Below are positions 5,519-59,082 of a stretch of 64,000 bases of DNA, piece after piece. The position numbers and the translations under genes were made by a program. Within the stretch, counting starts at the first letter, position 1. Each line of letters begins with the position of its first letter. This stretch comes from Alphaproteobacteria bacterium (GTDB lineage: Bacteria > Pseudomonadota > Alphaproteobacteria > Rickettsiales > 21-14-0-20-44-7), in NCBI GenBank assembly GCA_043757405.1, contig JAYVPI010000001.1, positions 211,437 to 275,436 on the forward strand. Reading direction: 5' to 3'. Under the pieces are notes generated by a model. The model had not been told where the DNA came from, searched no databases, and worked only from the letters and a program-made list of their open reading frames with translations.

Positions 5519-6324
5519 TGATACCCAGCCCGGCGCAAATTGCTGATAATTATGGCCTCCGCGCCATCAAAAACCTCGGTCAGCATTTCCTCTTTGACTT
5601 AAACATCACCCGCAAGATCTGCGCCCATGCCGGCAACTTGGAGGGCATGAACATAATCGAAATCGGCCCCGGCCCTGGCGGCTTGACGCAGGCGATTCTG
5701 GAGCAGAATATCAATAAACTCGTCGTCATAGAATTCGACGAACGCGCAATTGCTGGGTTGGAAGAGCTGCAAAAACATTATTCGGGCAAGCTCGAAATTA
5801 TTAACGGCGATGCCTTGGACCTGGATTTGCGTGAGATCGCGCCCAGCCCAAGAATGATCATGTCCAACCTTCCCTATAATATCTCCACCAAACTCCTAAC
5901 TAATTGGCTGGATTATGCCGATGAGTTTGAGTCCATGGTGCTGATGTTCCAAAAAGAAGTAGCCGAGCGTCTATACGCCGAGCCGCGCACCAAGGATTAT
6001 GGCCGCCTCTCTGTCATAACGCAGTGGCTGTCCAACGTCGAAAACCTCTTTGACCTCCCGCCAAGCGTTTTTACCCCGCCACCAAAAGTCACCTCCAGCG
6101 TGGTAAAAATCACCCCATATAAAACTCTGCCCTATCCCGCTAATAAAAAGAAAATGGAAAATATCCTCCGCTCCGCCTTCGGCCAACGCCGGAAAATGCT
6201 GCGTTCATCACTGAAATCCATAGTTAAGCCGGAGCAATTGGAGGCAATCGGCATAAAGCCAACCGCCCGCGCCGAAGAATTATCAGTTGAAGATTTCACC
6301 AAAATCGCCAATCTACTGGCATGA
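5518..6324 (+). CDS. rsmA: 16S rRNA (adenine1518/1519-N6)-dimethyltransferase RsmA/KsgA
   Basis: Motifs GQHFLFD and the SAM-binding EIGPGPGGLT are present. The GTG start overlaps the surA stop. Confidence 0.9.
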   Translation: MIPSPAQIADNYGLRAIKNLGQHFLFDLNITRKICAHAGNLEGMNIIEIGPGPGGLTQAILEQNINKLVVIEFDERAIAGLEELQKHYSGKLEIINGDALDLDLREIAPSPRMIMSNLPYNISTKLLTNWLDYADEFESMVLMFQKEVAERLYAEPRTKDYGRLSVITQWLSNVENLFDLPPSVFTPPPKVTSSVVKITPYKTLPYPANKKKMENILRSAFGQRRKMLRSSLKSIVKPEQLEAIGIKPTARAEELSVEDFTKIANLLA

Positions 6325-22263: not shown

Positions 22264-22348
22264 TGGTGCGGTTAAAAAGACTCGAACTTTCACCCCGTGA
22301 AGGACAGCGACCTCAACGCTGCGCGTCTACCAATTCCGCCATAACCGC
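22264..22348 (-). tRNA. tRNA-Leu (anticodon GAG), class II, CCA encoded
   Basis: Manual fold: acceptor GCGGTTA/TAACCGC; anticodon stem CAGCG/CGCTG with loop TTGAGGT; long variable arm; T-loop TTCGAGT. The 3' end is ACCA. Confidence 0.85.
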
Positions 22349-22395
22349 ACACTGGAAGCGGGTTTAGCAGGGGGCAGAAAAAGAATCAACTGATT

Positions 22396-22455
22396 TCGTT
22401 TATCGTTGATCGTTGATCGTAAATTGTATAACGGTAAACGATCAACGATAAACGA
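22396..22455. repeat. TCGTTGATCG-type palindromic element (copy 1)
   Basis: TCGTTTATCGTTGATCGTT and AACGATCAACGATAAACGA are perfect 19-bp arms around AAATTGTATA. The element is related to 46953-47024. Confidence 0.7.
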
Positions 22456-22459
22456 GCTC

Positions 22460-23071
22460 ATGCAAATCATAAGATCAAACGAGCTGGTAGATTATCCTTC
22501 GGCGCTTTCCTTCATGGAAAACCGGGTGGACGCGATTATTGAGGGCACGGCGGAAAACACGCTTTGGCTGCTGGAACATCCGCCACTATACACTTCAGGT
22601 ACCTCAGCCAAAATCTCGGATTTATTGCAGCCGGAATTTCCAGTTTACAAGGCCGGGCGTGGCGGGGAATATACTTATCACGGGCCAGGGCAGCGCGTGG
22701 TTTATGTTATGCGGCGGCTGGAGAAACATGACTTGCGGGCCTATGTGCGGGATTTGGAACAGTGGATAATCAATACGCTGGCGCATTTTGGGATCATGGG
22801 TGAGCGGCGTGAGGGGCGGATTGGAATTTGGGTGGCGGCGAATGGCAGCGAAGCAAAAATCGCAGCACTGGGAATCCGCGTGCGGAAATGGGTGGCTTAT
22901 CATGGGATCGCGATCAACGTGAAACCGGATTTGCGCCATTTTGGCGGAATTGTTCCCTGTGGGATTTCAGAATTTGGGGTGACATCGTTTGAGAAACTGG
23001 GAGTGAAAGTTTCGCTGAATGAAGTGGATGAAGTTTTGATTGAGGAATTCATAAAATTATTTAAAAACTAA
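22460..23071 (+). CDS. lipB: Octanoyltransferase LipB
   Basis: Contains [11 protein letters not shown] and [17 protein letters not shown]. The start is set at MQIIRSNE; the upstream part of the track ORF runs through the palindrome. Confidence 0.9.
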
Positions 23072-23072
23072 C

Positions 23073-23119
23073 GTCATCCTGAGCATAGCGAAGGATCTTT
23101 CGCTTGCGCTCAAGATGAC
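23073..23119. repeat. 48-bp-type palindromic element (GTCATYCTGAGCGCAAGCGAAGGATC... family), intergenic copy
   Basis: GTCATCCTGAGCATAGCGAAGGATCTTTCGCTTGCGCTCAAGATGAC begins 2 nt after the lipB stop. Confidence 0.8.
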
Positions 23120-23133
23120 GTATAGATGGAATT

Positions 23134-39203: not shown

Positions 39204-39229
39204 GTCATCCCCGCTTGCGTGAGGATGAC
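39204..39229. repeat. Minimal GTCATCC-hairpin-GGATGAC element between era and recO
   Basis: The sequence is GTCATCCCCGCTTGCGTGAGGATGAC. Its last base is the first base of the era stop-codon complement. Confidence 0.55.
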
Positions 39230-40110: not shown

Positions 40111-40125
40111 GGCCACATGATATAC

Positions 40126-40173
40126 GTCATCTTGAGCGCAAGCGAAAGATCTTTCGCTCGCGCTCAAGATGAC
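40126..40173. repeat. 48-bp palindromic element at the era/dnaE junction
   Basis: GTCATCTTGAGCGCAAGCGAAAGA|TCTTTCGCTCGCGCTCAAGATGAC has one arm mismatch. It contains the dnaE stop codon (40164-40166). Confidence 0.85.
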
Positions 40174-43100
40174 GATGGAAGGCAAATGCCCTCGATGAAC
40201 ATTATCTGCTCTTTTAAATTATCATTCACCGCATAATATCCCGGCAGTTCCAGCACCACTTCGCTAACGCCCGTTTGCGCTTTTAATATTACGCGGTTTT
40301 TGAACAACATGCCGCTTTCATATATATTCGCAGCTAATAAATTTCTCAGTTTCGCCACCGCTTCCAGGTTATCTGCAACAAAATTCAAGTCCTGGACTTT
40401 TATAAAACGCAGGAAATTTGCCTTAATTGCCGCTTGCAATTCTTCTATCCTCTCTGCCAACAAACGCACACCACCTTCATCTTTCTTCGCCTCGGCCGTA
40501 ATCAATATCGGCGTATTACTCGCCAACATTTCCGCCGCGCGGGTGATTAGGTCATCTTCGTAGAGAACAATTTCAAACACCCCCATCCCATCCGAAACTT
40601 TCGCAAACGCAAACCGCCCACGCTTGCCGGAACGAATATTCAAGGTTGCCAGCACACCAGCTAAACGAACTTTGGTCGAAGCGCTCTTCAGGCGTTCTTC
40701 GATTTGTATTGATGGCAACACGCCCATTTCATCGAGGATATGCTGATAATCATTCAATGGATGGTCTGATAAATAAAACCCAAATGCCTCATATTCCGCC
40801 TTCAGACGCTCATTGGAATCCCAATCGCTGGCCTGTACTAACGAGGGTTTTGGCGCTTCGCCAATCGTTCCTTCGCCAAATAAGCTGATTTGCGAAGAGT
40901 CAATTTCTTCCTGGCAAATATTGTTATACCGGCTGAGCATCTCCGCCGATTCCAGGATCTGCCGGCGGTTGCAAGCCATGCCGTCAAACGCCCCTGCCTT
41001 CGCCAAACCTTCCAAATGCTTCTTATTAATCACCTTAACATCGCAGCGTTTGCAAAAATCAAACACATCGGCGAACTTCCCGTTCTCCTTCCTCTGCGCC
41101 GCCATTGCTTTCGCCGCTTCGATACCAACGCCTTTTAATGCACCTAGCGCATAACGGATTGAGCCGTTTTCAGGTTGGAAATAAGCCTCTGAGGAGTTGA
41201 TATCAGGAGACAAAACTTTGATACCGCGTTTGCTGGCTTCGTGTTTATAAAAGCTGAGTTTGTCGGTGTCGGCAATATCGAGGTTCATACAGGCGGTCAA
41301 AAACTCCACCGGGTAATGGCAGCTCAAATATGCTGTCTGGTAGGCAATCACCGAATAAGCCACCGCGTGGGATTTGTTGAAACCGTAACCGGCGAATTTG
41401 GCGATCAAATCAAAAATATCCGCCGCCAGTTTTTTATTGATCCCCTTCTCCGCCGCACCTTCGGCAAACATCAGGCGTTGTTCATCCATCTCCGCCTTAA
41501 TCTTCTTGCCCATCGCCCGCCGCAGCAAATCCGCTTTGCCAAGCGAATATCCGGCCAATATTTGCGCGGATTGCATAACCTGTTCTTGATAAACCAAAAT
41601 TCCATATGTCTCATTCAACAAATCCGACAATGAAATATGCGGATATTGCACCTCTTCCTTGCCGTGTTTCCGCGCATTATAACTCGGAATATTTTCCATC
41701 GGGCCGGGGCGGCAAAGCGAAGTTAGTGCCACGATATCCTCAAATTTATCAGGGCGCATTTTGCGAATTGCGTCTTTCACCAAAGTTGTATCCAACTGGA
41801 ATACACCCGCCGTTTCACCTTTGGAAAGCATATGGAAAATCTTCTCATCATCCAGCGGTAGGTTGTGGATATCAACTTTATTCCCCCCAGCCTCAACAAA
41901 CTGCCGCGCCTTATCCACCAGCGTCAATGTACGCAAACCGAGGAAATCGAACTTCACCAACCCGGCCGTTTCCGCATCTTTCATCGAATATTGCGAAACC
42001 GGCATTTCTGAGCGCGGGTCTTTATATAACGGCACCAACTCCACCAATGGCCGGTCAGCAATCAATATTCCCGCCGCATGTGTAGAAGCATGGCGATTCA
42101 ATCCTTCGAGTTTCAGCGCCACATTCAACAATCGTCCGATATTCTCATCATCACGTTGCAACCGCCGCAGTTCAGGATCCATATCTATCGCTTTGGAAAG
42201 CGTCACCGGGTCAATTGGATTGAACGGAATCATTTTAGAAATCCTATCAACTTCCATGTAGGGAATTTGCATCACCCGCCCGACATCGCGCAGCACCGCC
42301 CGCGCTTGTAGTTTTCCGAAAGTGATAATCTGGCAGACACGGTCGTGGCCATATTTATTACGCACATAATCGATCACCTCATCGCGCCGCTCCTGGCAGA
42401 AATCGATATCAAAATCCGGCATTGATACACGTTCAGGATTCAAGAACCGTTCAAACAGCAAGCCAAACCGCAACGGGTCAACATCGGTGATTTGTAGCGC
42501 CCAGGCTACTAAGGAACCTGCACCCGAACCCCGTCCCGGCCCCACCGGAATTCCCTGGCCCTTCGCCCATTTGATGAAGTCGGATACGATTAAGAAATAG
42601 CCCGGAAATTTCATCTTGATAATGACATCAAGCTCGAATTCCAGCCTAGTCCAATATTCGTCATCCTGCGACTTGATCGCAGGATCTTGTGAGTGCATCT
42701 CAGGAGGTCCTGCGGTCAAGCCGCAGGATGACGTTTTAGTATTTAAGCGCTCCTGCAAACCCTCACGCGCCTGCACCCGTAACTCATCTTCCTGCGTCCT
42801 GCCAGCCTCAGTTGGATAATCCGGCAACATCGGCTGACGTCCTTCTGCTTTAACCGAGCAACGTTTCGCAAGCTGCACCGTATTGGCAATCGCCTCCGGA
42901 ATATCCGCAAAAATCGCTATCATTTCCTCAGCTGATTTAAAATAGAATTGGTCGTTATATTTCTTGCGGTTTTCATCAACCAAATATTTGCCCTCGGCGA
43001 TACATATCAGCGCGTCATGGGCCTCGGACATATCCTGGGTTGAATAGAAGCAATTATTAGTGGCGATCAGTGGGAGATTATATTTATAGGCTATATCTAT

Positions 43101-44378: not shown

Positions 44379-44396
44379 AACTCCATCCTTCAACAG

Positions 44397-44476
44397 CCGT
44401 CACCCCGCACTTGTTGCGGGGTCTATTCACAAGTTCATGCCCTGTAATGGATGCCGCAACAAGTGCGGGGTGACGG
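44397..44476. repeat. GTCACCCCG...CGGGGTGAC palindromic element between lolC/E and lolD
   Basis: Perfect 23-bp inverted arms CCGTCACCCCGCACTTGTTGCGG / CCGCAACAAGTGCGGGGTGACGG flank 34 bp. Confidence 0.9.
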
Positions 44477-44485
44477 TTTTGGTGG

Positions 44486-45736
44486 CTATTCATAACGCAA
44501 CGCCTCCGCCGGATCTAGTTTGGCGGCGCGCCAGCTTGGATAGATCGTGGCGATCAGGGAAATTAATAGCGAAATTCCCGCTACTTCGAGAACTTCTTTT
44601 GGGTTCACCAGCGCTGGAAGATGATCGAGGTGATAGATCTCCGGGTTAAAAACTTGTGTTTTGGTGACATATTCAACTGCTTTTTGTATGGGGCCGATGT
44701 AGTGGCAGAATAATAAGCCAAGTAAAACTCCGCTAAGCGTTCCGACGACGCCATTAAAACTGCCAACTAGCATAAATGCGCGTTGCACGGCGCGGCGCTC
44801 CATTCCCATTGTGCGGAGGATGGCGATTGATTGGGACTTGTCTTTTACAAGCATAATCATGCCGCTGATGATGTTGAATGAGGCCACCAAAATTATCATG
44901 CTGAGGATTATGAACATCATATTGCGCTCGGTTTGCACGGCGCCAAAGAATTGGGAGTTGGCTTGCTGCCAGTCATAGACGCGGTACCTGTCGCCGTAGC
45001 GATCGTGCAGTTTATAAGCATATGGCAGCGCATCGTCTAAATTTTTGACTTCAATGCCAAGGCTTTCAACCTTACCGCCAAAATCAAAGAGCCCTTGCGC
45101 AGTTTCAAGCGGGATATAAACCATATTGCGATCATATTCCTGCATACCAAGATTAAAGATGCCGACGATTTTGAAAGTTTTCTTGCGCGGGATGGCGCCA
45201 AAGACGGTTGAGGTGGATTGAGGAGTGAGGATGGTAATTTCGTTGCCGATATATGCATCCAACGCACTGGCCAGTTTGAATCCGATGATGATGCCATCTT
45301 CGCCAAAATCTTTCCATTCGCCAACAAAATCCATATTATTGACGAGCTTATTCGCCTGTAATTTTTCCGACGGAACCCCGCGTACTTTGACGCCTTCAAC
45401 CGCACCTTTGGCATGCGGGTTGAAAATCACCGCATTGCCCTCGATAGTTGGCGTCACGGATTTAACTTCCGGATCTTTCTCAATTTCCTTTTGAAGCAAC
45501 TGCCAATCCGGCAATCCGCGCTCCAGTGAATAAACCGAAACATGCGAATTTACGCCAAGGATGCGGCCCAGCAAGTCATTACGAAAGCCGTTCATAACTG
45601 AGAGGACGATGATAAGCGTCGCCACGCCGAGGCTTATGCCGACAATCGAAAGTCCCGCCACAATCGATATCATTCCCTCCCGCTTTTTTGTGCGTAGATA
45701 GCGGGCGGCGAGTGTTAGTTCCAGTTTATTGAACAT
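44486..45736 (-). CDS. Lipoprotein-releasing system transmembrane protein, LolC/LolE family
   Basis: N-terminus [21 protein letters not shown], with MacB-like periplasmic and FtsX domains. Length is 416 aa. Confidence 0.85.
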
Positions 45737-46949
45737 TTATTACCTTATTTAAAGCCGCCTCAACCGAAACTTCCTGCTTCTCACTAGATTTGCGATTCTT
45801 CAACTCAACCATTCCATTGGCCGCGCTTCTTGGCCCCACAGCAATTTGCCACGGTAGCCCGATCAAATCCATCGTTGCAAATTTCGCACCCGCTGAACCA
45901 TCGCGGTCATCGTATAAGCAGCTTGCGACTTTGCCATAGATTTCACTGCAGATTTTATCGCAGGCAGCATCACCAGGTTTGATGTTGATTAGCCCGAGTT
46001 TATATGGCGCGACCGGTTCCGGCCAGATGATGCCATTTTCGTCGTGGCTGGCTTCGATAATCGCCCCCACCAGTCGCGAAACGCCGATGCCGTAACTGCC
46101 CATTTGCGGGATAATTTCCTTACCGTCCGGCCCTTGGACTTTGACTTTCATGGCACGCGAATATTTATCGCCGAAATAGAATATGTGGCCAACTTCAATC
46201 CCCCGCGCTTCCTTGAAACCTTGTGGCGCGGTTTTGGGATCGTGCATTTCATCGGCCATGGCATATGAAAAATCATCGGTGTAATAAAGCGCCGACTCTC
46301 CGGTCTGCGCGACGATATGGAATTCGTGGCTCAAATCTCCGCCGATTGGCCCTGTATTGGCGCGAACAGGCACGGCTTTCAATCCCATGCGGGAGAAGGC
46401 TTTTAAATATGCGCCGTGATATTTCCAATATGTTTCCTGCGCCGCTTTTTCGTCGATATCAAAGCTATAAGCATCCTTCATCAAAAATTCGCGGCCGCGC
46501 ATGACGCCGAACCGTGGGCGGACTTCGTCGCGGAATTTCCATTGGATGTTATAAAGCATTTTTGGCAGGTCTTTATATGACTTGCAGGATTGGCGGAAAA
46601 TATCGGTGACAACTTCCTCCGCTGTCGGGCCAAAGAGCAGATCGCGGTCAGAGCGGTCTTTTATACGCAGCATTTCCTTGCCATAAGCTTCATATCGCCC
46701 AGATTCCTGCCATAATTCAGCCGGTTGCATAGTCGGCATCAATAGTTCCAGCGAGCCGATCGCGTCCATTTCCTCCCGAACGATTTGTTCGATATTTTTG
46801 AGGACTTTCAAGCCCAAAGGCAGCCAATTATAGATCCCCGCCCCCACTTGGCGCACCATTCCGGCACGCAGCATCAGGCGATGTGAGGCAATTTGCGCCT
46901 CAGCCGGATTTTCTTTGATTATCGGAAGGAGATATTGGCTTAGTTTCAT
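45726..46949 (-). CDS. proS: Proline--tRNA ligase (short form without editing domain)
   Basis: N-terminus [34 protein letters not shown]. Class II motifs are present. Confidence 0.9.
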
Positions 46950-46952
46950 AAG

Positions 46953-47024
46953 TCGTTCGTTGTTAATCGTTGATCGTTCATCGCTTGTAATTCGATAAAC
47001 GATTAACGATGAACGATCAACGAA
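46953..47024. repeat. TCGTTGATCG-type palindromic element (copy 2)
   Basis: TCGTTGATCGTTCATCG...CGATGAACGATCAACGA with a TTGTAA centre, between the proS and rpmG starts. Confidence 0.65.
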
Positions 47025-47089
47025 AAAGCTTGACTTTGCTGTGGGCGATGGCTAAAAACCCTGACAAATCAAAGAATCGGATAAGAAAA

Positions 47090-47257
47090 ATGGCTAAAAA
47101 AGACGCAATGTTAATCAAGCTGGTCAGCACCGCTGGCACAGGCTTTTATTATGTAAAAAAACGCAATCCGAAGCGTTATCCTAACAAACTGGCTTTCACT
47201 AAATATGACCCAGTAGTTCGTAAGCATGTTGAGTTTAAGGAAGAAAAGCTGAAATAG
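47090..47257 (+). CDS. rpmG: 50S ribosomal protein L33
   Basis: The 55-aa product is [29 protein letters not shown]...[18 protein letters not shown]. Confidence 0.9.
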
Positions 47258-47263
47258 GCTTCA

Positions 47264-47655
47264 GTCTTTCAGACATCGGACTTCAGTGAAAAAGGGCCAC
47301 AGGGAATTAAAAGTTTGGCAAAAATCTGTGGAGTTGGTTGATAATGTATACAACCTCATAGAGAAATTTCCTAAACATGAAATTTATTCTTTATCTACCC
47401 AATTAAAAAGATCCGCGGTCTCCGTTCCCTCAAACATAGCAGAGGGCTCAGCTAGAAAATCTGACAAAGAATTCATACGTTTTTTGAATATTGCATACGG
47501 CTCATTGGTGGAAGCGGATACGCAAATTTACATAGCCGAAAAAAGAAAATATATCTCCTCTGAAGAAGCAATTTCTATTATCAATGATCTTAACGAAGTA
47601 GGCAGAATGATAAATGGCCTAAGAAACTACTTACTGAAGTCCGATGTCTGAAGAC
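47264..47655. mobile_element. IVS-like hairpin cassette: 22/23-nt inverted repeats enclosing a four-helix-bundle ORF
   Basis: The left arm is GTCTTTCAGACATCGGACTTCAG (47264-47286). The right arm is CTGAAGTCCGATGTCTGAAGAC (47634-47655). They are complementary apart from one extra T. Confidence 0.5.
47286..47651 (+). CDS. Four-helix-bundle protein ('23S rRNA intervening sequence protein' / Avd-like family)
   Basis: Family hallmarks LKVWQKS...FPKHEIYSLSTQLKRSAVSVPSNIAEGSAR...FLNIAYGSLVE are present. The GTG start lies at the last base of the left stem and the stop lies inside the right stem. Confidence 0.8.
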   Translation: MKKGHRELKVWQKSVELVDNVYNLIEKFPKHEIYSLSTQLKRSAVSVPSNIAEGSARKSDKEFIRFLNIAYGSLVEADTQIYIAEKRKYISSEEAISIINDLNEVGRMINGLRNYLLKSDV

Positions 47656-47661
47656 CGCAGT

Positions 47662-48546
47662 CTATTTTTTTGCAAAATAATAATGTTCCCCGCGTTCCGA
47701 TTTAAGGATTTTGAGCCTGCGCTCGGTTTCAATGTTTTGCTGTAACTCGTGATATAGCTTAGTTTCCTGTAACGTGAAGCCAGCCCTTTCGACTATCTTT
47801 TTAATCTCGGAAACCGGTGCGGCGAATTTGTATTTTTCTTTTTTCTTGGCCAATACCATATCCGCAGTTTTTGTTCGCGCATTGCCTTCCATCTCGGACA
47901 TCGAGCCGAAAACTATATAACTTCCCTTAGCGCTTAACGAGGAAATATCGGAGAAAAGTTTTTCCACATCTTTCCTTTCCAAATATGGCAAAACACCCTC
48001 AATCACAAAAAAGCTTTTTTGCTTTTTATCAAATTTAGTTGGCCGCAACGCTTCTTTTAGGTTCTTTTTAGAAAGGTCGGCAGCAACAAAATTCATATTA
48101 GAAGTTGTAATTCCCGGCATCCTGGCCAAAGCATCAAGCTTAATTCTTTGTGTCGCTTGCTGATCCAGTTCAAAAAATTCCATTTGCGGATGTAAGTGTG
48201 AATATTCCAGGCAAAGTGTATCAAATCCAGCACCGATCATTGTTACTTGCGTGACTTCCCCAGCCACAGCTTGCAATTGCTTACGGATATAATTTTTGCG
48301 GGCAGCATAATGTACCGGCGAGCCTTTTATGCCGAAATTATCGATGAGCCAGATAGCGGCGCCGTTCCCAATCAAGTTATGCAAAAGCTTTATGCTCAAA
48401 TCGTTTTTTGCACATTCATTGGCCATTAAACGGCTTATTTCAACCTGCTGTTTAGTCACAAGATCAAAATATTTTTTACTCGCAGCGAGTGCTGGCAGAA
48501 CTTTGGGGATCAGGAAAGCGGTAAAACTCGGCTTCTCCTTTGCCAT
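47662..48546 (-). CDS. Class I SAM-dependent methyltransferase (leucine carboxyl/O-methyltransferase-like family)
   Basis: Contains VTMIGAGFDT and FFVIEGVLPYL. Confidence 0.65.
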   Translation of the reverse strand: MAKEKPSFTAFLIPKVLPALAASKKYFDLVTKQQVEISRLMANECAKNDLSIKLLHNLIGNGAAIWLIDNFGIKGSPVHYAARKNYIRKQLQAVAGEVTQVTMIGAGFDTLCLEYSHLHPQMEFFELDQQATQRIKLDALARMPGITTSNMNFVAADLSKKNLKEALRPTKFDKKQKSFFVIEGVLPYLERKDVEKLFSDISSLSAKGSYIVFGSMSEMEGNARTKTADMVLAKKKEKYKFAAPVSEIKKIVERAGFTLQETKLYHELQQNIETERRLKILKSERGEHYYFAKK

Positions 48547-48548
48547 TT

Positions 48549-49598
48549 CTAGACCGCAGCCAATGCCGGTTTGGCTTTCAGGTTATAATCTTTAACCAAG
48601 GCCTCCGCAATCTGCACAGCATTTAACGCCGCGCCTTTACGCAGATTATCGCCAACCACCCATAAATTGATTCCGTTTTTGATAGTAAAGTCTCTACGGA
48701 TACGGGAAACGAAAACATCGTCTTCGCCAACCACCTCAACTGGGGTTGCGTAACCACCATCTTCCTGCTTATCAAAAACTCTCACGCCCGGGGCATCTTC
48801 CAAAATTTCACGCACCTGCTCAGGAGTGATTGGGTTTTCAAATTCGATATTGATCGATTCCGAGTGTCCAACAAAAACCGGCACGCGCACACAAGTGGCG
48901 CTCACAGCGATATTCGCACCCAATATTTTCTTTGTCTCATTCACCATTTTCAACTCTTCCTTGGTATAACCATCATCCGCGAATGAATCGATATGCGGGA
49001 TAACATTGAAGGAAATGCGTTTAGTAAATTTTTGCGGCGCGACTTTATCGTTCATATAAACGGCTTTCGTTTGCGAAAACAACTCATCCATCGCCTCTTT
49101 ACCGGCGCCGGAAACTGATTGGTAAGTTGAAACTACGATACGTTTGATTTTGGCAGCATCATGCAACGGTTTCAAAGCCGTGACCATTTGGATAGTCGAG
49201 CAGTTTGGGTTGGCGATGATATATTTTTTTGTATATTCGGAAATCGCCGCTGCATTAACTTCCGGCACCACCAATGGAACTTCCGGATCCATGCGGAATT
49301 GTGAAGTGTTATCAATAACAATACATTTTGCCGCCGCCGCTTTTGGCGCGTAAATCGCAGAAACTTTGCTGCCTGGTGAAAACAAGGCGATATCAGTGCC
49401 GTGGAAGTCATGTTTTTCCAAATTTTGGACTTTAACAATTTTGTGATCGCCGAAGCTAACTTCAAGGCCGGCAGAACGAGCGGATGCAAGCGCAACTAAC
49501 TCACGAACCGGGAATTTGCGCTCCGATAAAATTTTTAATATTTCACGGCCAACATTGCCCGTGGCGCCGACGACGGCGACTTTGTAACCTGAGGACAT
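48549..49598 (-). CDS. asd: Aspartate-semialdehyde dehydrogenase
   Basis: VAVVGATGNVGRE and the active-site NCST context are present. Length is 349 aa. Confidence 0.95.
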   Translation of the reverse strand: MSSGYKVAVVGATGNVGREILKILSERKFPVRELVALASARSAGLEVSFGDHKIVKVQNLEKHDFHGTDIALFSPGSKVSAIYAPKAAAAKCIVIDNTSQFRMDPEVPLVVPEVNAAAISEYTKKYIIANPNCSTIQMVTALKPLHDAAKIKRIVVSTYQSVSGAGKEAMDELFSQTKAVYMNDKVAPQKFTKRISFNVIPHIDSFADDGYTKEELKMVNETKKILGANIAVSATCVRVPVFVGHSESINIEFENPITPEQVREILEDAPGVRVFDKQEDGGYATPVEVVGEDDVFVSRIRRDFTIKNGINLWVVGDNLRKGAALNAVQIAEALVKDYNLKAKPALAAV

Positions 49599-49654
49599 AA
49601 CTAACCTTAGAATTTGATAATGGCCGATAATACAGATTTTATTGACTTATTCCA

Positions 49655-50377
49655 CTATTTTTTATCGCAAACCGCCTCAAAAAATATCGCCCGCGTGGTA
49701 TTGGCGAGGTTTTTCTTCTGATACTTAGTTTCAATATGGTCAATAGGTTGTGTTTGCCAATCTGCCCTGGAACCTGCCAACCAACGAAATTTATCGTGTT
49801 CCAGCAATTCTCTGGCGATCCATTTAGCATAATCTTCGTGATCCGTGGCAATTCTGAGCCTGGCATCCCGCTTCATAATTCGTGCAAGCAAGTCTAAAGT
49901 TTGCTTCGATATTATCCGGCGTTTATTCTGCCGTTTCTTTGGCCACGGATCGGGGAACAGTATAAATACACGATCAATAACTCCCTCCCACACGTCATCC
50001 TGCGGCTCGACCGCAGGATCTCCTATGGTCAAGCCATATGGTGACGTAATTAATTGACGAAAATCTCCGGCATAGACTCGGATATTCTTAAGCTCATTCT
50101 CTTCAATCCCACGCAATAATTTTACAGTTCCGTTTACAAACGGCTCGCAGCCAATAAAGCCAATTTTGGGATTTGCCAGCGCCTGATGCAATAAATGACC
50201 ACCATCACCAAAGCCGATCTCCAGCCAGATTTCTTTGAAATCAAACTTAGGAAAGCCGTCAACTTTCACTTTGGGCAAAACTTCCGCCAACAGCTTTTTG
50301 GAATTATCACGCAGCTTGCGCGACTTGGTACGACCAAAGCTTTGCAGGTATTTAGGCGACTGCTTTGCGTAATTCAT
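49655..50377 (-). CDS. trmB: tRNA (guanine46-N7)-methyltransferase TrmB
   Basis: Contains [14 protein letters not shown]. The start is set at ATG 50377 and overlaps the metK 3' end by 26 nt. The track's 50443 start is less likely. Confidence 0.85.
49994..50045. repeat. GTCATCC...GGTGAC element inserted in frame in trmB
   Basis: GTCATCCTGCGGCTCGACCGCAGGATCTCCTATGGTCAAGCCATATGGTGAC encodes [17 protein letters not shown]. Confidence 0.8.
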
Positions 50378-51548
50378 CCGCCAAATCCGTTTTCTCCCAC
50401 GAGAAGCCGCCGTCTTTTTCCGGTTTGCGGCCAAAGTGGCCATAAGCGCTGGTGCGGCGGTAGATTGGTTTGTTAAGCTCTAATCTGGTGCGGATTCCAC
50501 GTGGAGATAAATCCACAATCTCAAGAATTTTCTGCGCCAGTTTTTGCTCGTCTACTTTTCCAGAACCATGTGTATTCACATAAAGCGCCAATGGTTTTGA
50601 AACGCCGATTGCATAGGCAACCTGCATTGTACAGCGATCGGCAAGACCTGCGGCAACCACGTTTTTAGCAACATAACGCATTGCATATGCCGCTGAACGA
50701 TCAACTTTAGTTGGGTCTTTGCCGCTGAATGCGCCGCCGCCATGTGGGGCAGACCCGCCGTAAGTATCGACGATAATTTTACGGCCGGTCAAACCAGAAT
50801 CACCTTCCGGGCCACCGATTACGAAATTGCCGGTTGGGTTGACATAAAATTCTTCTTCACTCGGCATCCAGCCTTTTGGTAAAATACGTTCGACAACCGG
50901 ACGGATGATATCGCGTACATCTTTGGTTTTTAAACCCGCATCATGCTGGTGCGAAACTACAACTGAAGTTGCTTTGACGGCACGGCCATTGCCTTCGTCG
51001 TTGTTTTGATAAAGCAATGTAACCTGTGATTTCGCGTCCGGGCCGAGGCCTTTGATTTTGCCGGATTTGCGCAGGTCAGTCAGTTCTTTCAAAATTTTGT
51101 GCGAATAATAAATTGGAGCCGGCATTAAATCTTCAGTTTCATTACAAGCATAGCCGAACATGATACCTTGATCGCCAGCGCCTTCATCTTTAGTGTCATT
51201 AGAATTTACACCCATTGCGATATCTGGGGATTGGCTGATCATATAGTTATGGATATTCACTTTTTGCCAGTGGAAGCGCTCTTGTTCATAACCCACATCT
51301 TTCACCACACCGCGTGCGATTGCGCAGATTTCGTCCTTGGTCAGGGCTTGTTTGGCCGTTGCTTCGCCGCCGATGATGATATTATCAGGCGTAACCATGC
51401 ACTCCGCGGCAACGCGGGCATATGGGTCTTTGCTTAAATAAGCATCAACAATCGCGTCAGAAATTTGATCGCAAAGCTTGTCCGGATGGCCCTCCGCCAC
51501 TGATTCGCTGGTAAATAAAAATTCGCCGGGATGATTTTTCATGTTCAT
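50352..51548 (-). CDS. metK: S-adenosylmethionine synthase
   Basis: Contains [11 protein letters not shown] and GGGAFSGKD. Length is 398 aa. Confidence 0.97.
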
Positions 51549-51575
51549 TTGGATACCTTGAATATCTGTTATATC

Positions 51576-51659
51576 GTCACCCCGGACTCGTTCCGGGGTC
51601 TGGCATTAGACACAATCTCTTGCCTCAACTTCCGGATCGCGGAACCAGTCCGCGATGAC
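51576..51659. repeat. GTCACCCCGG...CGCGATGAC two-hairpin element in the metK leader
   Basis: The hairpins are CCCCGGACTCGTTCCGGGG and ATCGCGGAACCAGTCCGCGAT. The architecture is that of the superfamily. Confidence 0.7.
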
Positions 51660-51693
51660 GATTATTAATGATGAAGTGGGTTTAACAGAGCTC

Positions 51694-52089
51694 TTACTTA
51701 TCCGCAAGCGACTTAATTAACTCTAACGCCTTCTTGCGAACTTTTGGGTCAGTAATTTGGTAATAAGCTTTGACCAGAGCCATAGTTTCGCGATTTTTGA
51801 GGTTGTCCTCATGCTCAAATGCCGCAGTATCTTCCGCCAGGGCATATTTATTTGCACCAGCTGCACCGCTATCATATTCATCAAAAAAGAAATTAACCGG
51901 GACGCTTAACGATTTTGCAATGTCAAACAACCGGCTTGAGCCGATACGGTTCACACCTTTTTCATATTTTTGCACTTGCTGGAAGGTAATACCAAGCATG
52001 TCCGCCAATTTTTCTTGGCTGATGCCGGTAACTGTGCGGCGGAGGCGGAGGCGTTTGCCTACGTGAATATCGATCGGGTTAGCACTCAT
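51694..52089 (-). CDS. XRE-family helix-turn-helix transcriptional regulator
   Basis: Contains GKRLRLRRTVTGISQEKLADMLGITFQQVQKYEKGVNRI. The lnt-HTH-metK-trmB order is a common alphaproteobacterial arrangement (recalled from memory). Confidence 0.75.
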   Translation of the reverse strand: MSANPIDIHVGKRLRLRRTVTGISQEKLADMLGITFQQVQKYEKGVNRIGSSRLFDIAKSLSVPVNFFFDEYDSGAAGANKYALAEDTAAFEHEDNLKNRETMALVKAYYQITDPKVRKKALELIKSLADK

Positions 52090-52126
52090 TATAAAAATCT
52101 ATAATTAAAAGTAGTAATTGATAGAT

Positions 52127-52140
52127 TAGGAACATTCCTA
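52127..52140. promoter_or_regulatory. Inverted repeat TAGGAA-CA-TTCCTA upstream of the XRE regulator (candidate operator)
   Basis: Perfect 6-bp arms lie 38-51 nt upstream of ATG 52089, flanked by AGATTAG / CTAATCT. Support is weak. Confidence 0.3.
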
Positions 52141-52194
52141 TTATCTGTTATCTAATCTTAATAAGCGAAAATTCCGCGCCCTGCAAGAGAAGTT

Positions 52195-53760
52195 TTAAAC
52201 TTTTCTTCTAAAAATTAATAAAAACTCCACACTGATTATGATTAATCCAAATATTATCCAATCACCGTATAATGAATATATAGTTACCGAATTATTTAAT
52301 TCAAGATCGGCGGATAAAAATCCATGCTGATTATAAGCCAATGATTTTACAATCCGCCCATTCTTATCAATAATCGCCGAAACTCCTGTATTAGCCGCCC
52401 GCAACATTGGCACCCCTTGCTCAATTGAACGCATTTGCGACATCGCCAGATGTTGATACGGCCCCGTCGAATTTCCAAACCACCCATCATTAGTAACATT
52501 AACCAGCAAATCCGGCTTGACTGCCGAATGGGAAAATTCCGGAAATGTGACTTCATAACAAATCAACGGCAAAAACCCCGGCCCGTTTTTATATTTCATC
52601 ACCTCACGCTTGCCCCCTTGCGAAAAATCCAGCGCTCCAGGCGTAATTTTTTCCAGCGGCAAATAATTCCGGAACGGCACAAACTCCCCAAACGGCACAA
52701 GGTGAATTTTGTCATAAGACTGATAAATCCCATCTTTGCTGATAGCATAAAGCGTGTTCCAAACCTGGTAATTACTTTTGCTTTCCCCGCTAGAGCGCAA
52801 CCCGCCAGTAACCAACACCCCATTATCCGGCGCCACACGCCTCAACAAATCCGTCACTGGCTGCTGCCGGTTCAAATAATAAGGCGCTCCCGATTCCGGC
52901 CACAAAACTATATCCGCGTTTTTATAATCCAGCGTCTGCATGAAATCTATATTCTCAATAAACTGCTTCTTCGCCGCCAACGGCTCCCACTTCAACGATT
53001 GCTCAACATTGGGTTGGAAGATTATGACTTTGGCAGTTTTATCTAAATCACCCTCACCTTTGCCAAAACATAACAGGCCATACAGAATTATAATCCCTAC
53101 AAGAGCAACAACCCCAACAAGTGATTTCTTATTTTTATAATAAAGCGGCAATAGCGAAATAATTATCACTACATAGCTCAACAAATAAACTCCGCCCGCT
53201 GAAGCAAGCTGTGAAAAAATAGTTGAAACTAGTGCCGTATATCCAATCAAATTCCATGGAAACCCCGTGAACAACCATGTGCGGATTAATTCAAAAACCA
53301 CCCATAATATAGAGAAAAGGATAATATCATTCCAATTCCCGCATTTGTCATCCTCGGGCTTGACCCGAGGGTCCAGCGATGAGTATGCCGCATGGCTGGA
53401 TCCCAGCCTTCGCTGGGATGACCTAAATGCGAGAGCAAACAACCCAATATAAATCGCCAGACCAAATGGAATCCCGCATACCGCAAACGGAATCAGCCAC
53501 GCAAATTTTTCTGCATCAACAAGTAGTGAGTTAGCAATCCAATATAAGCCAAACACAAAATACCCAAAGCCGAATGCCCAGCCGATTTTGAATGCCTGTA
53601 TCTTATTTTCCGCCGCAGCAAGAATTTTAAAAAATATTGGGAATGAGATAAATAAAACCGGAAAGATATAAAACGGCGCCAATGCCAAATCCGCCAATCC
53701 GCCAGCGGCAATTAGCGTTAAATACTTCAGCTTTCCTTGCAAAAAAAATTTTATCCCCAT
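52195..53760 (-). CDS. lnt: Apolipoprotein N-acyltransferase
   Basis: An N-terminal polytopic region and a CN-hydrolase domain with the LICYEVTFPE catalytic Cys context are present. Confidence 0.9.
   Translation of the reverse strand: MGIKFFLQGKLKYLTLIAAGGLADLALAPFYIFPVLFISFPIFFKILAAAENKIQAFKIGWAFGFGYFVFGLYWIANSLLVDAEKFAWLIPFAVCGIPFGLAIYIGLFALAFRSSQRRLGSSHAAYSSLDPRVKPEDDKCGNWNDIILFSILWVVFELIRTWLFTGFPWNLIGYTALVSTIFSQLASAGGVYLLSYVVIIISLLPLYYKNKKSLVGVVALVGIIILYGLLCFGKGEGDLDKTAKVIIFQPNVEQSLKWEPLAAKKQFIENIDFMQTLDYKNADIVLWPESGAPYYLNRQQPVTDLLRRVAPDNGVLVTGGLRSSGESKSNYQVWNTLYAISKDGIYQSYDKIHLVPFGEFVPFRNYLPLEKITPGALDFSQGGKREVMKYKNGPGFLPLICYEVTFPEFSHSAVKPDLLVNVTNDGWFGNSTGPYQHLAMSQMRSIEQGVPMLRAANTGVSAIIDKNGRIVKSLAYNQHGFLSADLELNNSVTIYSLYGDWIIFGLIIISVEFLLIFRRKV
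53347..53422. repeat. GTCATCC...GGGATGAC element inserted in frame in lnt
   Basis: GTCATCCTCGGGCTTGACCCGAGG...GATCCCAGCCTTCGCTGGGATGAC encodes GSSHAAYSSLDPRVKPEDD. Confidence 0.8.
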
Positions 53761-53763
53761 AAC

Positions 53764-53834
53764 GTCATCCTGCGGCTTGACCGCAGGAACTCCTCATACA
53801 CGCACCAGACCCTGCAATCAAGTAGCAGGGTGAC
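53764..53834. repeat. GTCATCC...GGGTGAC element at the lnt start / bioF end
   Basis: GTCATCCTGCGGCTTGACCGCAGG...CCCTGCAATCAAGTAGCAGGGTGAC. It contains the bioF stop (53818-53820) and lies 3 nt upstream of the lnt ATG. Confidence 0.8.
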
Positions 53835-54951
53835 ACATATTTAGTGTTTTAAGCCAATCCGCCAATAAATCAATTTCACTTTTCGTATGCGCCGCCGTCA
53901 CCGAAATGCGGAGCCGCGCCGTCCCCTTAGGCACCGTTGGCGGCCGCATCGCCGAGACTAGTATTTTATTATCCTTAAGCAACTTCTCCGCCGCTAGCGC
54001 CTTTTCCTCGCTGCCCAAAATAATAGGAACGATACTTGAAGTTCCGTCATTACGAGCGAAGCGCGGCAATGACGATTTAAGATATTCCGTATTCTTCAAT
54101 ACTTTCAAATATAGCTCATCCCGCCCAGCAATCTCCAGCGCCTTTATCGCCGCACCAACCGCGAATGGCGGCAGCCCAGTTGAATAAATCAATGATCGCG
54201 CCTTAGTCTCCAAATACCGAATCAAAGCCCGAGAACCACAAACATACCCCCCATAACTCCCCAGCGCCTTTGACATTGTCCCGATATAAATGTGAGCTTT
54301 AAGTTTTGATTTTTGATAAATGGAGTGTGCGCCGTCAACTATTAGTGTGCAGTTGTTTTTATCGGCGATTTCCTTCAGCTCATCAACCGGAGCAAAATCC
54401 CCATCCATTGAAAAGATCTCTTCGGTGATGATGAGCCGCCTGCGCTTATCGTCATTCTGAGCGCAAGCGAAGGATCCTTCGCTTGCGCTCAGAATGACGT
54501 CTTTCTCCAAACACTTCTTCAAGTCAGCAACATCATTATGCTTAAACCGCACCAGCTTTGCGCCGGAGAGCTTTATTGCGTCGATTATAGAAGCGTGGAC
54601 TAATTTATCGGCATAAACCACTTCCGGCTCCAGCGCTGTGATAACGCCAAGATTTGCCAGATATCCGCTGCCAAATACCGTGGCGGCCTCATAACCTTTA
54701 TAAGCCGCGATTTTTTCAGCAAATTCCCCAAATAATGGATGATTTCCGCCCGCAATCCTGCTTGCCCCCGCTCCTGCGCCATATTTTTCCGCAGCTTCTA
54801 TTCCGGCAATAATCACTTCCGGATGGCGGCTTAAACCTAAATAATCATTTGATGTAAAATTGATAAATCCTTCCCCCCACTCACCCTTGGGCGTTCGCAG
54901 GAGATTTTTATCCTTCAAATCATTTAGTTTTTGCTGTAATAGACTATCCAT
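53818..54951 (-). CDS. bioF: 8-amino-7-oxononanoate synthase
   Basis: SNDYLGL and the PLP-Lys context [12 protein letters not shown] are present. The start is set at ATG 54951 (MDSLLQQKL...); the track's 55011 start is TTG. Confidence 0.85.
54451..54498. repeat. Perfect 48-bp palindrome inserted in frame in bioF
   Basis: GTCATTCTGAGCGCAAGCGAAGGA|TCCTTCGCTTGCGCTCAGAATGAC has 24+24 arms with no mismatch. It encodes [16 protein letters not shown]. Confidence 0.9.
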
Positions 54952-55900
54952 GAACATCCGACACGATTGGAAACAGTCTGAAGTTATAGATTTATTCGCC
55001 CTGCCTTTCAACGACCTAATATTTCAGGCCGCCAGCGTGCACCGCGCCAATCATGATCCAAACGCGGTTCAAATCTCGACATTACTCTCCATAAAAACCG
55101 GCGGCTGCGCGGAAGATTGTAAATATTGCCCGCAATCCGCATCATATGACACCCCCGTAAAAGCCGAAAAACTCACCACAGTTGAACATGTCCGCTCCGA
55201 GGCCACAAAAGCCAAAGCCGCCGGAGCTTCCCGCTTTTGCATGGGCGCCGCCTGGCGTTCGCCTAAGGATCGGGATTTGGATAATGTTATTGAGATGGTG
55301 AAGGTGGTGAAGGATCTGGGGTTGGAGTCGTGCTGCACATTGGGCATGTTGACGAAACCACAAGCCGAGAAATTGAAGGATGCGGGGCTGGATTATTACA
55401 ACCACAACATCGATACTTCCCCGGAATATTACGGAAATATAATCACCACCCGCACCTTCCAAGACCGCCTCGATACACTCGCGCATGTGCGCGAGGCCGG
55501 AATGAAAACCTGCTGCGGCGGCATAGTAGGAATGGGCGAATCAGTGGCCGACCGCGCCGGTATGCTGCTGACATTGGCGAATTTGCCTGAACACCCGGAA
55601 TCCGTCCCGATTAATCTGCTAGTCCCAGTCGAAGGCACCCCATTCGGCAATCGGCAATCGGCAATCGGCAATCTCGACTTCGTCCGCATGATCGCCGTGG
55701 CGCGGATATTAATGCCAAAATCCGCAATACGCCTGTCAGCAGGCCGCGAAGAAATGTCAGACGAAATGCAGGCGTTATGTTTCCTAGCGGGTGCAAATTC
55801 GATTTTTTATGGCGAAAAATTATTAACCACTCCGAATCCGGAAGCCCTTGAAGATAAGAAGCTTTTTGACCGACTGGGTCTTAAAGCTATGGCAGTTTAA
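54950..55900 (+). CDS. bioB: Biotin synthase
   Basis: The radical-SAM motif [11 protein letters not shown] is present. The start is the first ATG, at 54950 ([16 protein letters not shown]). Confidence 0.95.
55645..55673 (+). repeat. Heptanucleotide tandem repeat (CGGCAAT)x4 +1 inside bioB
   Basis: The run is perfect: cggcaat cggcaat cggcaat cggcaat c. It encodes GNRQSAIGN. Confidence 0.95.
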
Positions 55901-55934
55901 TTGACCATTAATCCCTTTCCCCTAATATCCCCCC

Positions 55935-59082
<3,148 letters not shown>

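Follow-up and report, generated by a model that had tools for sequence, protein, structure and literature searches.

Several classes of short hairpin repeats have been described in bacteria, and here we compare with them a perfect 50-bp palindrome that lies in frame within bioF, the gene for 8-amino-7-oxononanoate synthase, in a 64,000-nt stretch of alphaproteobacterial DNA (contig JAYVPI010000001.1, positions 211,437 to 275,436), referred to below as the window. The closest described class comes from the survey of Di Nocera, De Gregorio and Rocco in 2013, which sorted prokaryotic repetitive extragenic palindromes (REPs) into two superfamilies, tagged GTAG and CGTC (PMC3733652). As characterized in that survey, CGTC REPs have stems of 8-9 bp that almost always start with A-T and T-A pairs, carry loops of 4-5 nt, and are found mainly in Alphaproteobacteria and mainly as head-to-head dimers. 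They include dRS3 of Neisseria and the Rickettsia palindromic elements RPE-4 and RPE-6, which are equated with CGTC-4 and CGTC-1, respectively. Intragenic dimers add 20-30 residues to the encoded protein, in many cases that of a replication or repair gene, and the class is described as apparently lacking a dedicated transposase. Repeats with more than one stem mismatch were dropped from the survey (PMC3733652).

The Neisseria version of these repeats was studied by Chenal et al. in 2025 under the name NTS (CGTCATTCCCGCGMAVGCGGGAATCYRG). Their report describes Ssn-related motifs (SRMs) on both sides of ssnA, which codes for a 94-aa single-domain GIY-YIG protein, and shows that SsnA binds the hairpin only as single-stranded DNA and cleaves upstream of it. 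The NTS-ssnA-NTS arrangement is likened there to an insertion sequence, the effect demonstrated being on transformation only: NTS repeats flanking genes reduce transformation in Neisseria. In N. meningitidis, 2% of the NTS repeats are intragenic (PMC11893778). In-frame hairpin repeats in housekeeping genes have been known since the work on Rickettsia, and these Rickettsia palindromic elements (RPEs), including RPE-1 of Ogata et al. in 2000, are covered by a review (PMC10969869).

Against this background, the bioF palindrome is very probably a gene-less, non-autonomous dimer of CGTC hairpin repeats, belonging to a family that expanded in the lineage, and tolerated in a loop of BioF. In the course of events that we propose, the CGTC repeat family would have expanded in the alphaproteobacterial source lineage, one dimer would then have inserted in bioF after the split from the nearest sampled relatives, and this copy would have survived because it added a net 48 bp (16 codons), was read in the only stop-free phase of the three and fell in a surface loop. 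In the full form of such elements, the gene of a single-domain GIY-YIG protein of ~95 aa is bracketed by two units, like the ends of an insertion sequence.

Structure of the bioF palindrome and its relation to CGTC repeats

The palindrome, its host gene and its two sister copies are placed as follows.

54450..54499, no strand: two CGTC-tagged tandem-GA hairpin units joined head to head as a perfect 50-bp palindrome, encoding 16 residues of bioF
53818..54957, minus strand: bioF, host gene (8-amino-7-oxononanoate synthase, class I/II aminotransferase; open reading frame (ORF) to 55011)
40125..40174, no strand: tandem-GA sister copy with one arm mismatch, between dnaE and era, providing the dnaE stop TGA
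23072..23120, no strand: sister copy directly after the lipB stop, with arms of two subtypes

The two arms (CGTCATTCTGAGCGCAAGCGAAGGA followed directly by TCCTTCGCTTGCGCTCAGAATGACG; window positions 54450-54499) are 25 nt each and 100% complementary, with zero spacer. The original prediction, made from the sequence alone, was of a perfect 48-bp palindrome in bioF; it is indeed perfect, and one base longer on each side. It is made up of two units, 54451-54475 (+) and 54474-54498 (-), which share 2 nt (the central AT) at a GGATCC centre. Each unit reads GTC + ATTCT + GA + GC-GCAA-GC + GA + AGGAT: the tag comes first, followed by an outer stem of 5 bp whose first pairs are A-T and T-A, then a tandem G.A and, innermost, a 2-bp stem closed by a GCAA loop. 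Written as an arm (ATTCTGAGC / GCAA / GCGAAGGAT), this gives a 9-position stem closed by a 4-nt loop, in which A-T and T-A come first, position 3 is T.G and positions 6-7 are G.A/A.G.

With up to three mismatches allowed, the 24-nt half-arm matches at four places in the window (both bioF arms and one arm of each sister copy), compared with none in 100 dinucleotide shuffles. As single-stranded DNA, the 50 nt are predicted to fold into one 23-bp hairpin (-30 kcal/mol, z = -11.8). Palindromes of ~50 bp are usually tolerated, severe instability setting in above roughly 100-150 bp. Given this general tolerance, the cruciform and replication-slippage hazard that had been attached to the palindrome was overstated, although the palindrome itself is real. 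Rfam at gathering thresholds returned one tRNA as the sole family in the whole window, and a search around the palindrome at E values up to 10 gave generic hairpin (miRNA-type) noise only; a literature search with the literal palindrome sequence returned only unrelated primer matches. A hammerhead-like reading of CUGA…GAA was ruled out by inspection, the UGA of the CUGANGA core being missing.

Both sister copies that had been predicted are present. Each arm of the copy at 40125-40174 departs from the bioF copy at three positions, and these changes are mirrored between the arms. In the copy at 23072-23120 the arms are ATCCT…AGGAT and ATCTT…AAGAT, each of which is self-complementary, while the palindrome between the arms is broken. 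Because these arms differ, yet each keeps its own stem, the conserved entity appears from this comparison to be the hairpin unit and not the long palindrome.

The tandem-GA copies are part of a larger population. A tag-plus-stem scan for hairpins starting with GTCAY found 24 in the 64 kb, about 20 of which are convincing. In four related contigs, the same scan found none in 13 kb of L121, three in L119, six matches in L120 (~4 convincing) and 11 in L203 (~8 convincing). Nine composite elements were mapped in the window, all bounded by (C/T)GTCAY…RTGAC(G/A), and by subtype the 64 kb hold three tandem-GA dimers, eight or more dimers that belong to other CGTC subtypes, and a number of single units. 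These repeats recur within the genome and are mostly head-to-head dimers, as CGTC REPs are. Further elements of the window are listed below.

54045..54074, minus strand: 30-bp single-hairpin mini element at a second site in bioF (CGTCATTACGAGCGAAGCGCGGCAATGACG on the plus strand), encoding 10 residues
53764..53834, no strand: CGTC hairpin dimer at the lnt-bioF junction, providing the last five codons of bioF (CHPAT) and its stop codon
56998..57063, no strand: in-frame insertion of 22 codons in bioA, a CGTC hairpin dimer of canonical SRM type; site empty in L121 and occupied in L203
42659..42733, no strand: CGTC hairpin dimer in frame in dnaE, 25 codons, within the NTPase domain of Pol III alpha
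53346..53422, no strand: CGTC hairpin dimer in frame in lnt, containing …SSLDPRVKPEDDK…; absent from L121 and L203
49988..50028, no strand: CGTC hairpin unit in frame in trmB, with 12 residues listed; absent from L121
34700..34763, no strand: intergenic CGTC hairpin dimer between a convergent amino-acid permease gene and rlmE/ftsJ
44399..44474, no strand: intergenic CGTC dimer of the GTCAC type, with an ABC ATPase gene on one side and a MacB/FtsX-type permease gene on the other
51576..51659, no strand: intergenic CGTC dimer that lies a short way upstream of the start of metK (ORF 50352..51548, minus strand)

The in-frame insertions in bioA, dnaE, lnt and trmB amount to 14-27 residues each. At the lnt-bioF junction, L203 has a different CGTC dimer. 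Together, the CGTC repeats account for odd extra segments in BioF, BioA, DnaE, Lnt and TrmB, and for two gene ends. A 26-bp mini palindrome (39204-39229) also abuts the era stop codon.

By its architecture, the bioF element agrees with the CGTC REPs in many respects. Both of its arms start with CGTC-AT…, and so carry the unpaired 5' CGTC tag (for which TGTC or CCTC may stand); the A-T/T-A first pairs, the 9-position stem and the 4-nt loop resemble those of the class except for the mismatched pairs noted below, and the head-to-head dimers, the many copies and the alphaproteobacterial host are shared, as are in-frame intragenic dimers of ~16-25 aa, including one in dnaE, and placement beside stop codons. 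The differences lie in the stem and in the joining of the units: whereas the four published families have continuous stems of 8-9 bp, the bioF subtype has a tandem G.A in mid-stem plus one T.G, and its units overlap by 2 nt with neither spacer nor tail, thus forming a perfect palindrome. The host was placed by its proteins. The best named MetK matches (68-70% identity) come from Dongia, Sneathiella and Rhodoligotrophos, all Alphaproteobacteria, and the named BioF matches at 45-50% identity belong to metagenome-assembled genomes (MAGs) of Alphaproteobacteria or Rickettsiales; the G+C content of the window is 44-49%. An alphaproteobacterial host fits the known host range of the CGTC REPs.

Likeness to the NTS/Ssn system is seen in the CGTCAT-type tag followed by a hairpin, in the inverted hairpins on both sides of a ~95-aa single-domain GIY-YIG gene (in other genomes, see below), and in the wide phylogenetic spread. 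The published SRM pattern, HGTCWYN(0-2)YYVSBRHN(0-5)WNVSBRGN(0-2)RNCYNB, has 12 matches in the window, of which 11 are clearly CGTC hairpins, and none in 30 random windows. About half of the mapped composite CGTC elements of the window touch coding sequence, as opposed to the 2% of NTS repeats reported as intragenic in N. meningitidis (PMC11893778). Hairpins identical to the NTS core (GTCATTCCCGCGCAGGCGGGAAT) occur in the relatives, at L119:2939-2961, L120:1991-2013 and 5919-5941, and L203:12489-12570, which indicates that the repeat class changes little across very distant bacteria. Taken by architecture, the bioF element belongs to the known CGTC class, in a subtype to which neither the 2013 survey nor the SRM description, as published, gives explicit cover. 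The original prediction had caught the palindrome itself, but not its membership in a large and known repeat class.

Insertion into bioF, its age and its probable tolerance

The 16 residues encoded by the palindrome face a gap in 23 of 27 aligned BioF sequences (the host and 26 relatives), and solved BioF homologues show a 15-residue gap opposite the insert. The gene order bioA, bioB / bioF, lnt, a helix-turn-helix gene, metK, trmB is kept in four related contigs, whose bioF genes are for this reason regarded as orthologues. Two of these contigs are the closest relatives that we compared, the database holding no closer strain: L203, a JGI metagenome contig (MetK 96% and the N-terminal half of DnaE 87% identical), and L121 (MetK 92-93% and BioB 88% identical). 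Both are empty at both bioF sites, and L203 has a 20-residue gap at the palindrome site. The suggestion that the segment is an insertion is therefore upheld, as it has no counterpart in 23 of the 27 BioF proteins, in the solved homologues or in the two nearest relatives, and judged by these alignments the bioF palindrome is a lineage-specific insertion.

Other BioF proteins carry other elements in the same two loops. The loop of the palindrome holds a different CGTC dimer in L119, CCCTCCCTGAGGGAGGG-type repeats in L120 and another insert in protein P0002. In the second loop, P0002 and P0008 have GTCATTGCGAG-type dimers, longer than the element of the window but beginning at the same codon, and further elements are found in P0013, P0021 and P0023. 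In L120:6001-7224 (BioF P0008), the palindrome loop is occupied by three CCCTC(T/C)CCCTGAGGGAG(A/G)GG-type repeats, which appear in the protein as SPSGRG and SPSLREG; a further repeat family is thus read as part of a coding sequence. The shared use of these loops fits a selection that would sieve insertions to tolerant loops, and a local target preference is a possible alternative cause. The reuse of the same protein loops by unrelated repeats should help in studying how inserted peptides are tolerated and recruited.

The perfection of the palindrome had been taken as a sign of recent insertion, and the comparison of copies supports this. While the bioF copy has perfect arms and is absent from L203 and L121, the insertion sites in bioA and dnaE are also occupied in L203, so that these two insertions would be older, and their arms in the window are imperfect (96% complementary in bioA and 86% in dnaE). 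In L203 the dnaE copy has decayed, and the stems of the bioA copy differ from those of the window by paired changes. This ordering of a perfect, lineage-specific copy and imperfect, shared ones supports a recent event, without amounting to proof, and it is reasonable to place the bioF insertion after the split from the nearest sampled relatives. The C-to-T change of the bioF copy (ATCCT to ATTCT) is present in both arms, giving a T.G in the stem of each; being mirrored, it calls for either a variant master copy or the correction of one arm by the other, and a palindrome could also stay perfect in either of these ways.

Perfect inverted repeats longer than the k-mer length break or confuse short-read assemblers, and a chimeric or fold-back join could in principle have made the palindrome. 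We consider such an artefact very improbable. The reading frame is exactly preserved, with conserved BioF sequence on either side, and two sister copies and many related elements are present in the same contig and in other genomes. A check against independent data had been suggested, and Logan k-mer assemblies from two sequencing runs answer it in part. Contig L204 (run SRR23617274) is 100% identical to window positions 54470-56648 and independently covers the right arm and the GGATCC centre and runs 5 nt into the left arm, where it stops; both whole arms are spanned by the source record alone among the reads and contigs seen, and an exact look-up of the BioF product in other assemblies returned no second full-length record. 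The stop of L204 inside the palindrome is expected, because k-mer assembly breaks at perfect inverted repeats, and contig L205 (window 54537-56648, identical) likewise ends before it. Contig L202 corresponds to window positions 44392-53420 with one mismatch in 9 kb, and both of its ends lie inside CGTC elements, one of them being the 44399-44474 dimer. We ascribe these breaks to the behaviour of k-mer assemblers at real repeats, and they serve as a warning to annotators and assemblers. No repeat was found at 56648, the end shared by L204 and L205.

The bioF reading frame is intact around the palindrome, with the 16 in-frame codons that had been predicted. The start of the gene is uncertain, since the minus-strand ORF spans 53818..55011 and the database version of the protein (P0001) begins at 54918. 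The product is a class I/II aminotransferase whose best solved relatives are 8-amino-7-oxononanoate synthases, and it has all 62 columns that are invariant in the 27-sequence alignment; as the host protein is itself among the 27 sequences, these are retained by construction. Both strands of the palindrome read the same, and of its three phases phase 2 alone is stop-free, the other two containing TGA. The encoded residues end six residues upstream of a 13-residue segment in the region of the FSMDGD motif. In an AlphaFold2 model of BioF built on the same alignment (mean predicted local distance difference test (pLDDT) score 85.7, predicted template modelling score 0.86), the insert is residues 141-156: the first of these prolong helix 130-146, pLDDT drops below 50 at residues 148-156, and the next strand is 161-166. 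The insert is thus modelled in a loop at the surface, which joins a helix to the strand that runs towards the FSMDGD motif. The insert at the second site (residues 284-292) is likewise modelled in a loop, between helix 269-283 and strand 296-302.

These features make the bioF insert similar to the RPEs, as an in-frame palindromic repeat that adds a peptide to an intact housekeeping gene at a place that the model indicates to be structurally tolerant. Unlike RPE-1, which is ~150 bp long and specific to Rickettsia, it is only 48-50 bp long and comes from a non-Rickettsia host of ~47% G+C, and its arm sequence is almost unchanged across many phyla. It is a clear non-Rickettsia case of CGTC hairpin repeats colonising coding sequence.

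It is unlikely that the insert has been kept for a function, be it as a peptide loop modifying BioF or as an mRNA or DNA hairpin in the bio cluster, which could be a site of RNase action or pausing, or a nuclease target that limits the recombination of incoming bioF DNA. The peptide is conserved in no relative, the same BioF loop holds unrelated repeats or nothing in the relatives, and the segment is modelled as disordered. A hairpin role would be in line with the high stability of the folded palindrome (-30 kcal/mol as DNA), with the six CGTC elements found in ~4 kb around lnt, bioF and bioA, and with the lowering of Neisseria transformation by gene-flanking NTS repeats (PMC11893778), but similar inserts are also found in unrelated genes (dnaE, lnt and trmB), which speaks against a bio-specific role. 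On the model and the comparison with relatives, the bioF insert is probably a passenger that is tolerated, being translated into an additional, disordered loop that forms no functional part of BioF; BioF is presumably still active and the insert neutral.

The tandem-GA hairpin beside GIY-YIG genes in other genomes

More than 118 stretches with the half-arm GTCATYYTGAGCGCRAGCGAARGA were found among contigs representing one genome per species. By their record titles, the hosts include Alphaproteobacteria, Deltaproteobacteria, Burkholderiales, Bacillota, Bacteroidota, Chloroflexota, Verrucomicrobiota, Acidobacteriota, Gemmatimonadota, Cyanobacteria, Nitrospirae, Actinomycetota, Omnitrophota, Patescibacteria and others. 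Across these phyla the 24-nt core of the hairpin, GTCAT-yyy-GA-[stem-loop]-GA-rrr-AT, is nearly identical, and in most cases a variable spacer separates the arm from a partner arm in inverted orientation. Among 82 partner arms, which were picked by the 5-nt tag alone, 62 have GA at positions 9-10, and in 40 of these 62 their own outer 5-nt stem is perfectly closed after the second GA, compared with 2.6% when the stem of another arm is used as a control. Five outer stems are represented (TCT/AGA, CCT/AGG, GCT/AGC, GTT/AAC and CCC/GGG), and 26 of the 40 inner segments have at least two stacked Watson-Crick pairs, against ~3.4 of 40 after shuffling.

The association of this hairpin with GIY-YIG genes was first seen at two loci. 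In Adhaeribacter soli (L072), two tandem-GA arms bracket a gene for an 82-aa PF01541 protein, and in L001, a MAG from Alphaproteobacteria, a homologous GIY-YIG gene is preceded at a distance of 13 nt by a complete dimer. The link was then tested from the protein side in 80 metagenome loci encoding the family, which is PF01541 by Pfam and for which NCBIfam gives nothing specific. A tandem-GA arm adjoins the GIY-YIG gene in 57 of the 80 loci, whereas the SRM pattern is beside the gene in none. An arm lies within 200 bp upstream in 41 loci, within 250 bp downstream in 49, and on both sides in 34; in 28 loci, a plus arm upstream and a minus arm downstream form an inverted bracket, with median gaps of 39 and 55 bp. 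The arm density is 3.8 per kb beside the gene, 0.46 elsewhere in the loci and 0.004 in random sequence. In other genomes, therefore, the tandem-GA subtype has the arrangement that marks the Ssn systems, namely hairpins flanking a small single-domain GIY-YIG gene. Most of the GIY-YIG proteins beside these hairpins (P0123-P0241) are on very short contigs (0.5-3 kb), and some of the called products run into the hairpin (P0174, for example, begins MGVAVTSVILSAAKDL), which suggests multi-copy elements that break assemblies.

Based on this association, the element may have been mobilised in the source genome by a GIY-YIG nuclease, or by some other dedicated enzyme. It is also possible, though we hold it to be rather doubtful, that the same repeats are moved by a different engine, be it a REP-associated tyrosine transposase (RAYT), a transposase of another kind, or recombination and template switching by the host. 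The GIY-YIG genes would then be merely frequent neighbours or users of the hairpins, for instance in single-strand DNA restriction as in Neisseria. Head-to-head hairpin dimers are the design of the RAYT-mobilised REP doublets (REPINs) (PMC3116915, PMC3333891), and the two systems further agree in that two inverted short hairpins form a longer one, in being non-autonomous, in acting at the level of single strands, and in having repeats that flank the cognate gene. Yet the REPIN tag is GTAG, the one recognised by RAYTs, while every copy seen here has CGTC; the REPIN enzyme is an HUH/Y1 transposase and not a GIY-YIG protein; and REPINs are almost always extragenic. As for other transposases, the 2013 survey reports none linked to CGTC REPs (PMC3733652), and no recurrent neighbouring protein was found by all-against-all clustering of 3744 ORFs around 129 motif instances in 118 loci. 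The published work on Ssn demonstrates binding, cleavage and an effect on transformation, and not transposition (PMC11893778), which, together with the lack of a GIY-YIG gene in the window, leaves room for another engine, but the bracket of hairpin, GIY-YIG gene and inverted hairpin in 28 of 80 loci mimics an insertion sequence.

Several further observations weigh against our reading of the bioF palindrome as a CGTC dimer of a GIY-YIG-related family. Searches by tblastn and by profile found no GIY-YIG gene in the 64-kb window or in the loci of the relatives. The nearest solved relatives, by sequence, of the sampled GIY-YIG clade are UPF0213 proteins, and the Ssn report raises transposition by Ssn proteins as a hypothesis only, with no activity shown (PMC11893778). 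None of the three tandem-GA copies (54450-54499, 40125-40174 and 23072-23120) matches the SRM pattern, and the bioF arms, with two G.A and one T.G, would fail the one-mismatch limit of the 2013 survey, from which tandem-GA units would be dropped because more than one stem mismatch was excluded (PMC3733652). A lone bioF arm is not predicted to be stable (-1.3 kcal/mol by nearest-neighbour DNA parameters, no better than shuffles), and in the bioF copy the 23-bp long hairpin would dominate. The three copies show no visible target-site duplication or common target sequence (flanks TAA and TAT, ATA and ATG, TAT and TCT), the only feature common to their flanks being the C…G that extends the palindrome; the terminal inverted repeats plus target-site duplication of a miniature inverted-repeat transposable element are thus not seen.

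Even so, we favour the CGTC dimer, and on a more tentative level the tandem-GA hairpin might represent a separate Ssn-type branch of hairpin and GIY-YIG gene that the published motif misses. Its GIY-YIG protein might then act as the transposase of a ~450-bp element resembling an insertion sequence, whose gene-less dimers would have colonised bioF, dnaE and bioA. What is mildly new here is the tandem-GA subtype with its own GIY-YIG partners, as well as the density of insertions in coding sequence in a non-Rickettsia lineage. Found beside or bracketing many small GIY-YIG genes, the subtype may extend both the Ssn nuclease family and its repertoire of target sites.

Other repeats and genes in the window and its relatives

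A different inverted-repeat family, made of TCGTTGATCGTT / AACGATCAACGA units without the CGTC tag, is present at 22391-22460 and 46944-47025, and one of its copies adjoins tRNA-Leu (22264-22348). In L203, the TrmB gene (L203:11677-12438) contains two insertions of yet another repeat type, which add the peptides EPRNFGTSELRN… and EPRNSGIPELQ…; the position of the CGTC unit in the trmB of the window is overlapped by one insertion, and the other lies further upstream. A gene for a 121-aa protein with precomputed PF05635 (23S rRNA intervening sequence protein) and PF22296 (bAvd) assignments adjoins rpmG, at ~47286-47651 of the window (L202:5770-6135).

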